A DNA stretch of 64,000 bases from Bdellovibrionota bacterium (GTDB taxonomy: Bacteria > Bdellovibrionota_C > UBA2361 > JBGSMV01), in NCBI GenBank assembly GCA_041739995.1, contig JBGSMV010000047.1:3972-67971 (forward strand). The letters are read 5' to 3'. This document shows, piece after piece, positions 27,001 through 30,000 of the stretch (its first letter is position 1; the number at the start of each line of letters is the position of its first letter). The position numbers were made by a program.

Positions 27001-30000
27001 TTCGAGCAACAAATCCTCGGATCAATCTTGCCTGCACTTCAGCTTAAGCCTGAACAAATAGTTGATTTAAGAATTGCACGCTGGGGGCATCCACTGGTTG
27101 TCTCAGCTCCGGGATTAATCAAAGGCGGTACCATTGACCAGCTCCGCAAACCTTTTAAGCATCGGGTTTTCTTCGTTGAACAAGACAATTGGGCGCTCCC
27201 TGCTTTTGAGACCTCGGTCACCGAGGCGATGTATTGGGCTCCTCAGGTGAAACAAGCACTCGCTTAGGTTTGAGAGCACATGGCGGACAAATCGCTCGGG
27301 TCGTCTGAGCGAAGCATCTTGATGAATTTACTTTAACTTTGCGACAGGCGATTATGCGAAGGTGGAAATCGCTGCTGTTGAAGTTCATGACCTGACCGTT
27401 ACGTATCATCGTAAGCCGGTGCTTTGGAACATCGACGTATCTCTACCGGCGAATAAACTAATCGCGATCGTCGGGCCGAACGGAGCCGGAAAATCTACTC
27501 TTCTCAAAGCTGCTCTGGGACTAGTGCCAATTGCCACTGGCAAGCTCACCGTCTGCGGAAAGCCAGCCTCAAAGAGCAAAGGACTGATCGGCTACATACC
27601 ACAACGAGAAAGCGTCGATTGGGATTTTCCAATAAGTGCCCTCGAAGTAGTGGTCATGGGCAGATACGGAAAAATCGGCTGGATTCGTCGCGCCGGCAAA
27701 GCTGACTTTGCGGCGGCACGAGAGTGTTTAGATGCGGTCGGCATGGCGGATCTTGCGGACCGTCAAATTAGTCAGCTCTCGGGTGGTCAGCAGCAAAGAG
27801 TCTTTCTCGCACGAGCTCTCGCACAAGACGCCACAGTATATTTGATGGATGAACCTTTCGCAGGCGTCGACGCTGCTACCGAACACGCCATTGTGTCTGT
27901 GCTTCAACGTATGCGAGCCGAGGGAAAAAGTATTATCGCTGTTCACCACGATCTACAAACAATTCCTACCTACTTTGACTGGGTGTTGATGCTTAACGTT
28001 CACCTTGTCGCTGTAGGACCCACTGAGCTGGTATTTACTAAGGAAAATCTGCACGCTACCTACGGTGGCCGTCTGGTCGTGCTCGATAGAGTGGGCGAGG
28101 CCATGAGAAAGTCGTAGATGAGATCTCCACGCACTAAAGGCCCTGTCGGCCCAAGAACTCGCTAGGAGTCTGTGACACAGGTCTGTGACACAGCCCTGTT
28201 TGTCAGGGTCCGCCTTCGCTCACATGTGCCTGTGCAGCCATTTAATTTGATTAGGCTTCCCCCTTCGCTTCCTCGTTCGCGAAGGCTACGGAGGATAGGA
28301 AAGCTTCGGGGGACGAGTCGGCGGGACGTCGTCGTCTGTGCCTGTGTCACAGACTCCTAGAATTACTCACGAAAATAGCCCCAATAAGTGCGCTCCCAAT
28401 ACTAAGGCGACGGAGAAAAGCTTCCGATTTTCATTATTCGATGAGGAGTCCAGAACGTAAATTACTTTTAAGACTTGTCCTCATCACAGGCTTCCTGGCG
28501 TCCAGCGGACTTACTAGCTCCGCATATGCGGATTCCCACCCCAAGCTCCCACGAATAAGCCCCGACAGAGCCATTCTCTTTCATTCAAGCAACTCAAATA
28601 TCGCCGCAGCTCATCGGACAATGCGGTTCGACCGATATCCAGGCCTTGAACCTGAAGCACTAGGCCCACATGCCATCTTGGTACAACGACGTGAGGTTAC
28701 TCTAAACACCGCGGCAGCACGTGGCGCACTAAAGTCAATCCCTCTTTCGCGGCGACATAATCCCTGCCTTAAGGATCGGCGCATCAAGCGATTGGTCAAA
28801 AAGCATGGCCTCAACTGTGAACCGGACTTCATTGTTGAAGCTAGTCTGACTCCAAACGACGCCCTCTACTCAAGTTTGTGGGGCATGCAGGGTGCCTTCG
28901 GAATAGGAGCCCCAACGGCATGGAACGTAAGTAACGGCAGTGGGGTAACCGTCGCGGTCCTCGACACAGGCGTTGATAGAAACCACCCCGATCTTGCCGC
29001 TAACATGTGGATCAACACTGGCGAGATAGCATCAAACGGAATCGATGATGACGCAAACGGATACATCGATGACGTCAATGGTTGGGACTTCTATGACAAC
29101 GACAATGATCCCTCGGACATGCACGGACACGGCACCCACGTTTCAGGAACAATTGCGGGTACCGGCAATAATTCAATTGGCGTGATCGGTGCAGCGTACG
29201 GCGCAAAAATCATGGCACTTCGCTTCATTGGACCAGGTGGAGGACTCACCAGCCATGCTATCTTCGCCCTATACTATGCGATAGATAAGGGCATTCCCAT
29301 CTCAAATAATTCTTGGGGCGGTGCCGGATTTAGCTCTGCACTTCAAGCGGCGATTAGTGATGCGAGCACCTCGGGTATGTTGTTTGTTGCTGCGGCCGGG
29401 AATAATGGAACCAATAATGACTCGGTCCCATTCTACCCGGCGTCGTATACTTTACCTAATATCGTTTCAGTTGGATCTATCACCAGTACAGGAACGATTT
29501 CGAATTTCTCGAACTACGGTGCCACCTCTGTGGATCTCTTCGCACCAGGCAGCGGAATTTTGAGCAGCCTGCCATCAAACTCCTACGCTTCGTGGGATGG
29601 TACCTCAATGGCAAGTCCACACGTGGCGGGTGTAGCCGCCCAAATTCTTAGTGTAAATTCCGGCTTCTCCACCGCGCAGATAAAGGATGCGCTGTTGAAC
29701 AACAGCAGCTCGGATGCAACATACCTCGGAGCCTGTCTCACCTCGGGACGATTGAATGCTGCGACTGCGGTGCAGATTGCGAACACGCCAACACCGACAC
29801 CGACGCAATCACCCACCACTCCGCAACCGGGCGCCACGATAACACCCGCTCCTACTTCAACCCCAGTTCCCTCTTCTCCAACCCTTACGCCTACTCCCTT
29901 ACCACCCCCATCTCCCGAAGATGAAGACGAGCCGGACGCACCAGATGAACAAGAGTATGGTATCTTCGTTTCCTCCGGCGAGACCGAGAATGTCCTCGTT

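Follow-up and report, generated by a model that had tools for sequence, protein, structure and literature searches.

An undescribed, dispersed family of short MITE-like elements with CTAG-type flanks in Bdellovibrionota DNA

[quoted passage not shown] Throughout the family the copies are delimited by a terminal inverted repeat (TIR) of 17 to 20 bp, (CT)AGGAGTCTGTGACACAGG. With moderate confidence, we regard them as short noncoding derivatives of a DNA transposon that are non-autonomous and moved in trans, with insertion targeted to the TA within CTAG, probably by a transposase of the IS630/Tc1-mariner type. The family itself is undescribed, whereas the kind of element is ordinary.

The end common to the three loci, as read from the sequence, is CTAGGAGTCTG(T/A)GACA(C/T)AGG. 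A search of the window with the pattern GGAGTCTGWGACAYAGG, in which ≤3 mismatches were allowed, yielded 6 matches versus 0.40 expected, and none of 100 shuffles reached that number. A repeat finder independently joined the same three loci via families D4 and D10 and the inverted pairs I1, I2, I3, and I11, and when the window was searched with a profile of the family (nhmmer), only copies A, B, and C were recovered. One more match to the TIR, with 3 mismatches, was found at 20907-20923, within the TatD gene; the profile search did not return it, and it was attributed to chance. A first-pass annotation, made from the sequence alone, had proposed three copies with common ends, and both the number of end matches and the repeat finder agree with that proposal. 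Its coordinates were right for B and were adjusted for A (11760-11882 instead of 11761-11884) and for C (end at 38075 instead of 38076).

As listed in Table 1, copy B is a long form with perfectly complementary 20-nt ends. A 13-nt unit is tandemly duplicated in and next to its left end (28168-28180 plus 28181-28193), and this duplication is absent from every other copy in the family alignment. The perfect ends and an internal duplication had both been described for B in the first-pass annotation, as had the nature of copy A, an internal-deletion derivative in the opposite orientation, and the size of copy C (about 60 bp); all of these descriptions were borne out. Copy A matches B on the opposite strand with 81% identity over 80 nt (I1) and 94% over 33 nt (I2) and is missing 60 nt of B; at its deletion junction, GGCTTCC is joined to GCGGGACG. 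The sequence of A recurs in an independent Logan assembly (L020). The two inverted ends of A (11763-11779 and 11863-11879; columns 18/112) carry the same substitution with complementarity kept, GACACAG being changed to GACATAG in one arm and CTGTGTC to CTATGTC in the other. The near end of copy C is perfect, with 26/26 identities to the right end of B when 2 flank bases are included (I3); about 30 nt of subterminal sequence is kept, and the far end is degenerate (CACAGACCCCTCG). The copies have no coding capacity; the only open frames are two of 62 amino acids (aa) that mirror each other across B, neither of which is conserved in A or C.

The copies span 27 to 199 bp in size, and one copy from metagenomes, L009, exceeds 220 bp. 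The 126-bp forms from metagenomes have a deletion junction at which GGCTACGG is joined to CGGGACG, two motifs that both occur in B. The deletion break-points differ among copies, and the range of sizes is consistent with a long form that lost internal sequence repeatedly. Moreover, the 3′ part of the 60-nt segment of B (GGACGAGTCGGCGGGACGTC) is also present in L009 (B 150-169 corresponds to L009 748-767), and thus the long forms are probably ancestral.

Members of the family were also found in unrelated surroundings elsewhere. A scan of metagenome contigs for the TIR returned 16 loci, and BLAST, inspection, and profile search identified 7 true members at 6 sites among them. In these members, the similarity reaches up to 42 nt past the searched pattern and includes the internal motifs GTCCGCCTTCGC and GGCGGGACGTCGTC; the nhmmer E-values of family members range from 1e-40 to 7e-3. 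The copy in L007 is essentially a single end closed off by the final bases of the opposite one and forms a near-perfect palindrome. The metagenome copies neighbor unrelated housekeeping genes: they occupy a queA-tgt spacer, a position upstream of nusB, a site at which an AAA_14/DUF4143 gene has its 3′ end, and a position beside an SLT gene. Since members alike in their ends and subterminal sequence lie in unrelated contexts, the family is not a locally duplicated palindrome. A local regulatory palindrome was the counter-case given in the first-pass annotation; its own proposal of a novel dispersed MITE-like family is upheld by at least 6 further sites with unrelated neighbors in metagenome contigs. 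The GC content of the contigs hosting members, 38 to 57%, suggests several hosts, and given this range the family may have passed between a number of host species that share habitats.

The remaining 9 of the 16 metagenome matches were chance single-end matches: L005, L010, and L016, which represent one SAR324 gene, and L008, L011, L012, L014, L015, and L019. When 185,579 species representatives, which do not include the source genome, were scanned with TAGGAGTCTGWGACAYAGG, one match and no intact TIR element were obtained, and that match falls in a SAR324 coding region without a second end or internal similarity. The SAR324 coding gene (seen in L003, L005, L010, and L016) carries, by chance, an exact 19-nt match to the TIR and likewise lacks a second end. 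Viral contigs gave 7 TIR matches, none of them with TA flanks or internal similarity, a plasmid collection gave none, and no occurrence of the TIR string was found in the literature.

Table 1. Copies of the repeat family, their parts, and the stop codons at which two of them lie
Feature	Position or size	Strand	Remarks	Basis
Copy B, long form	28162..28360; 199 bp including flanking CTAGs	+		I11, alignments, nhmmer E = 3e-32
Left TIR of B, CTAGGAGTCTGTGACACAGG	28162..28181	+	20 nt, 100% complementary to right TIR	I11, pattern search
Right TIR of B	28341..28360	-		I11
13-nt tandem duplication in B, GTCTGTGACACAG	28168..28193	+	in and next to left end	read from sequence
60-nt internal segment of B	28261..28320	+	deleted in A	alignments
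Copy A, internal-deletion derivative	11760..11882; 123 bp including flanks CTAG/CTAA	-	between convergent genes	I1, I2, alignments, nhmmer E = 2.8e-32
Copy C, extreme internal-deletion derivative	38017..38075; 59 bp	-		I3, alignments, profile search
TAG stop of membrane protein gene	11761..11763	+	142-150 aa; gene from ~11311/11335 to 11763	P0123, 100% identity, called gene
TAG stop of RimK-like ATP-grasp gene	38018..38020	+	gene 37082-38020	312/312 gapless alignment with orthologue
L013 and L006	126 bp		metagenome members	
L017/L018	128 bp		one site in two samples	
L004	70 bp		C-like short form	
L007, CTAGGAGTCTGTGACACAGGCTCCTAG	756-782; 27 bp		minimal palindromic remnant	
L009	>220 bp		B-like long form, one end missing	

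Syntenic DNA of a relative lacks the elements. The ATP-grasp protein encoded beside C has a relative, P0002, with 79% amino acid identity, and the contigs that carry it (L001 and L002) are syntenic with the window over both the B and the C sites; in neither contig is the element present at the B site or at the C site. Some 58 kb of DNA belonging to this relative and to others was devoid of family copies, versus three in the 64-kb window. Loci of relatives anchored by SufB (L028 to L030) contained no family members; their synteny is confined to one side, and the A site is not covered. L020 is identical to the window, copy A included, so it does not represent an empty site.

The junctions of the copies follow a common form. 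Of the six ends in the window, four have CTAG as their boundary, while CTAA is found at the far end of A and CTCG at the far end of C; the earlier statement that all copies are bounded by CTAG thus holds for four ends and fails for these two. Copies B, L006, L007, L013, and L017/18 have CTAG at both ends, and the metagenome sites are CTAG-flanked. All intact ends adjoin TA, with a C before the TA at every intact left junction and a G after it at 6/7 right junctions, the intact form being C-TA-G[GAGTC ... GACTC]C-TA-G. On a model of TA duplication, the C and the TA at the left end of B would be derived from the target, and the element would start with G28165. The unlike flanks of A favor duplication of TA over that of 4 bp, since a C-TA-A target with TA duplication predicts exactly the pair CTAG/CTAA. 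Furthermore, the outer two bases at the end adjoining ...GGCGGGACGTCGTCGTCTGTGCC are pyrimidines at 7/7 independent sites (~6e-5 by chance), and the other end is unbiased. Read towards the element, the dinucleotides beyond CTAG at the end beside ...GACGTCGTCGTCTGTGCC are TT, TT, TT, CT, CT, CC, and TC; these flanks are located at 11758-11759, 28361-28362, and 38015-38016 in the window and in L004, L006, L013, and L017/L018. This bias suggests either that the target is extended asymmetrically or that the terminus is slightly longer.

Two copies in the window lie exactly at the ends of genes. The open reading frames (ORFs) ending at 11763 and 38020 use the TAG of the element's CTAG, in keeping with the first-pass annotation, which had offered two explanations: the insertions rewrote the C-termini, or targets containing stop codons were selected. 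At the C site, the ATP-grasp protein and the relative's orthologue align over 312/312 residues without a gap, and both end with ...SF followed by TAG. Because the orthologue ends at the same residue with TAG, the stop predates the insertion, which took place in its TA. At the A site, deletion of the element together with one TA restores ...AAG TTC TAA GCC..., in which the TAA is in frame, and by this reconstruction the original stop was TAA. The TA followed by the element's G gives TAG, and the original third base, A, is left on the other side, which accounts for the unequal flanks of A, CTAG next to the gene and CTAA at the other end. A rewritten C-terminus is therefore ruled out at C by the alignment and contradicted at A by the reconstructed TAA, and the pre-existing stops favor the second of the two explanations. 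The distant homologues of the membrane protein beside A (37 to 40% identity) have longer, unconserved tails, which have no bearing on this question.

Two metagenome copies are placed similarly: that of L017/L018 borders on the TAG of the AAA_14/DUF4143 gene, which encodes 393 aa, and that of L009 terminates an open frame of 183 codons. On these comparisons, the C-termini were not rewritten, and stop codons can be occupied silently: with G as its first base, the element restores a TAG when it enters the TA of a stop codon, and the protein is unchanged. CTAG is mildly underrepresented in the window (n = 127, observed/expected 0.75), and of the ~38 CTAG sites at which an insertion would not be disruptive, ~7 coincide with stop codons. 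A preference for CTAG combined with purifying selection is enough for an enrichment at stop codons; silent insertion into them is a consequence of the target preference, and a new mechanism is not required. In a crude set of 57 genes, the stops are TAG in 25, TAA in 20, and TGA in 12, and TAG stops in such abundance would provide the element with many silent landing sites.

We propose the following course of events. The derivatives would retain only the TIRs of 17 to 20 bp and the subterminal sequence recognized by a transposase whose gene lies elsewhere in the genome. This enzyme, a DDE transposase most likely of the IS630/Tc1-mariner type, would bind both ends, GGAGTCTGTGACACAG, and excision would be followed by insertion at the TA of CTAG (occasionally CTAA) with duplication of the TA. 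With an element that starts with G and ends with C, an insertion would read ...C-TA-G[GAGTC...GACTC]C-TA-G/A..., and one placed in the TA of a stop codon (TAA or TAG) would regenerate TAG and leave the protein untouched. Insertions in coding CTAGs would be purged by selection, such that survivors build up in spacers and at exact gene ends, and internal deletions at short homologies would generate the sizes of 27, 59, 70, ~125, 199, and >220 bp.

Several observations weigh against this proposal. First, no autonomous partner with the family ends was found in the window or beside the metagenome copies. A Pfam scan of the 52 window ORFs of ≥150 aa revealed no transposase, integrase, or Y1 domain, which at the Pfam level agrees with the earlier statement that the window has no transposase gene; a DDE (DD34-35E)/helix-turn-helix transposase with matching TIRs was found neither among these ORFs nor among 12 ORFs beside the metagenome copies. 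Second, no empty site was recovered at the nucleotide level, the sole syntenic relative being too diverged to align in spacers. Third, with a constant CTAG target, a 2-bp duplication of TA and a 4-bp duplication of CTAG produce identical sequences; only copy A separates the two, and with ends that are ~12% diverged, its CTAA could be a later mutation. Fourth, a simple palindromic-target model does not predict the two pyrimidines outside one end at all seven sites. Finally, insertions at stops account for 4/9 independent sites versus ~0.18 expected from neutral CTAG, with a binomial p of only ~0.06.

The third point bears on the identity of the parent, for which we consider an IS630-type element moderately probable, an IS5-type element a serious but less probable rival, and other explanations unlikely. 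With an IS5-family parent (IS5/IS427 group, PIF/Harbinger-like), the copies would still be MITEs, the target would be YTAR with all four bases duplicated, and the element proper would begin with GAGTCTG. Such a parent, which we judge possible at rather low probability, would suit the CTAG at both ends of nearly all copies as well as the CTAA of A, which is also a YTAR site. It has a bacterial precedent in MITEPsy1 of Pseudomonas syringae, an IS5-derived element of 100 nt with 18-nt TIRs beginning GGAAGGTCTG that duplicates the whole CTAG or YTAA tetranucleotide (PMC3189936). MITEPsy1 resembles the present family in its length of ~100 nt, in TIRs of 18 nt starting with GG, and in its CTAG or YTAA flanks (PMC3189936); it differs in having a known parent, ISPsy2, and in duplicating the entire tetranucleotide, whereas the flanks of A fit TA better, and the sequence similarity between the two amounts to only a few bases. 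Moreover, both tetramers ought to be the same after a 4-bp duplication, and the unlike CTAG/CTAA of A would thus need a later mutation, and no IS5-type transposase was found among the window ORFs. As for the IS630-type parent, IS630 and ISY100 elements duplicate TA (PMC2170065), and IS630 prefers TA inside 5′-CTAG-3′ (Tenzen & Ohtsubo 1991, as cited in that article). The IS630/Tc1-like duplication of TA in CTAG suggested by the first-pass annotation is compatible with all junctions and favored by the flanks of A, but a 4-bp duplication of the IS5 type fits almost equally.

A more far-reaching version of the proposal, which we consider improbable, is that the element is adapted to stop codons. 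The G together with the duplicated TA would rebuild TAG, one end would preferentially dock on the last codon plus stop, and the insertion would install a hairpin as an insulator or stabilizer in a 3′ untranslated region (UTR) or between convergent genes; the docking end would be the one with two purines outside, the other strand reading YYC-TAG. If true, the family would represent a MITE with a real gene-end preference and a host-level function, not a neutral passenger. A specific gene-end preference would make it a transposon that uses stop codons as safe landing sites.

Two further readings were weighed, and we consider both very unlikely. According to the first, the copies would be REPINs, that is, two inverted repetitive extragenic palindromic (REP) sequences that form a hairpin and are spread via single-stranded DNA by a REP-associated tyrosine transposase (RAYT; IS200/IS605-type Y1 transposase), with no target duplication. 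The copies do consist of two inverted 20-nt units with ~85 nt between them, they are intergenic, and strong hairpins are predicted for them (z = -3.8 to -5.9). The end contains the palindrome CTGTG-A-CACAG, and CTAG heads each unit, to be compared with the GTAG that heads REP sequences. However, a palindrome with a 5-bp stem and a 1-nt loop cannot form a REP-type hairpin, an alternative 7-bp hairpin at one end is unconserved among copies, and no Y1 transposase domain (Y1_Tnp) occurs in the window ORFs. A deletion series in which both outer ends are kept, combined with TA/CTAG junctions, is instead typical of cut-and-paste MITEs.

The second, about as improbable, holds that the repeat is an immobile functional palindrome (a bidirectional terminator, an RNA-stabilizing 3′ hairpin, or a site bound by a protein) that selection maintains where genes end. 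Copies A and C are indeed located between tightly packed convergent genes without a canonical terminator, B is in a probable 3′ UTR, the predicted hairpins are strong (-95.6 kcal/mol and z = -5.8 for the RNA fold of B), and the one matched double change preserves pairing in the ends of A. Against this reading, the element is missing at the same sites in a syntenic relative, copies occur in both orientations and in unrelated contexts, some of them upstream of genes, and size is very variable, the ends alone being retained. There is no T-run after the hairpin, no Rfam match, and no net covariation, the covariation term for internal helices being +1.48, which is unfavorable and gives no support. 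A terminator or promoter function was also rejected on the basis that no canonical sites exist in or at the elements, as was a structured RNA, with Rfam giving no match and net covariation being absent. An integron attC site was dismissed, since the flanks are syntenic housekeeping genes, no integrase is present, and the GTTRRRY core is not matched by the ends. The predicted hairpin may have a secondary effect, and to suppose an effect of the long hairpin at the RNA level in 3′ UTRs is speculation.

Returning to an IS630/Tc1-mariner-type origin, the elements of this group (IS630, ISY100) and bacterial MITEs likewise have short TIRs, insert at TA, and give rise to small noncoding intergenic derivatives; RUP of Streptococcus pneumoniae is a MITE linked to IS630. 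The present family differs in that no transposase partner was identified and that we infer its 2-bp duplication; taken as an element end, its TIR is without a match in the plasmid, viral, and genome-representative collections or in the literature. The Correia elements (CREE/NEMIS) of Neisseria measure ~100 to 155 bp, have TIRs, TA flanks, and internal-deletion size classes, and are abundant near gene ends; they are transcribed as hairpins and can affect mRNA processing. They differ from the present family, for which there is no evidence of a role as a promoter or with IHF or RNase III, in their unrelated sequence and other host lineage. REPIN/RAYT systems also form intergenic hairpins from inverted pairs of short conserved units; here, by contrast, the units contain no REP hairpin that could fold, the junctions resemble duplications of a TA/CTAG target, and no RAYT gene is present in the window.

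For annotation, the family adds an undescribed group of MITEs in a poorly sampled, uncultured lineage and provides a clean example of a TA/CTAG-targeting element that sits exactly on a stop codon with the protein unaltered. Repeats of this type break metagenome assemblies and can mislead the calling of gene ends, and the copies are useful as presence/absence markers at the strain level.

Regarding the genomic setting, the window is chromosomal DNA with 51.5% GC and housekeeping genes. The Pfam scan identified SufB, tmk, holB, TatD, ZnuA and its ABC system, NadE, a Tad pilus cluster, and flagellin, and the closest named relatives of SufB are from a metagenome-assembled genome (MAG) labeled 'Proteobacteria bacterium' (88%), a Bdellovibrionota MAG (82%), and SAR324 (77%), which places the source only approximately. 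The whole window yielded 0 Rfam matches at the gathering threshold and no tRNAs. Copy B is set between an ABC ATPase gene (27362-28117), whose stop is 45 bp away, and an S8 subtilase gene (28441-30390), which follows after 80 bp. A terminator-like hairpin with a T-run is present at 28411-28434 (+), downstream of B and before the next gene, and B is therefore probably transcribed as part of the ABC ATPase gene's 3′ UTR. Copies A and C are each located between convergent genes, which are separated by only ~33 bp at A and ~27 bp at C when the elements are subtracted. Orientation relative to neighboring genes is not fixed, the copies occurring either way round.

The ATP-grasp gene at C closes an operon (34867-38020, +) that encodes a RimB-like zinc protease, a 7TM-inactive-transglutaminase protein, and the RimK-like ATP-grasp ligase, and this arrangement is kept in L001 and L002. 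The subtilase gene next to B has a paralogue at 58545-60398, and the two S8 subtilase genes share a 47-nt stretch at 77% identity. Finally, the flagellin (623 aa, 22679-24550, -) contains about five FG-GAP repeats as a central variable region between Flagellin_N and Flagellin_C.

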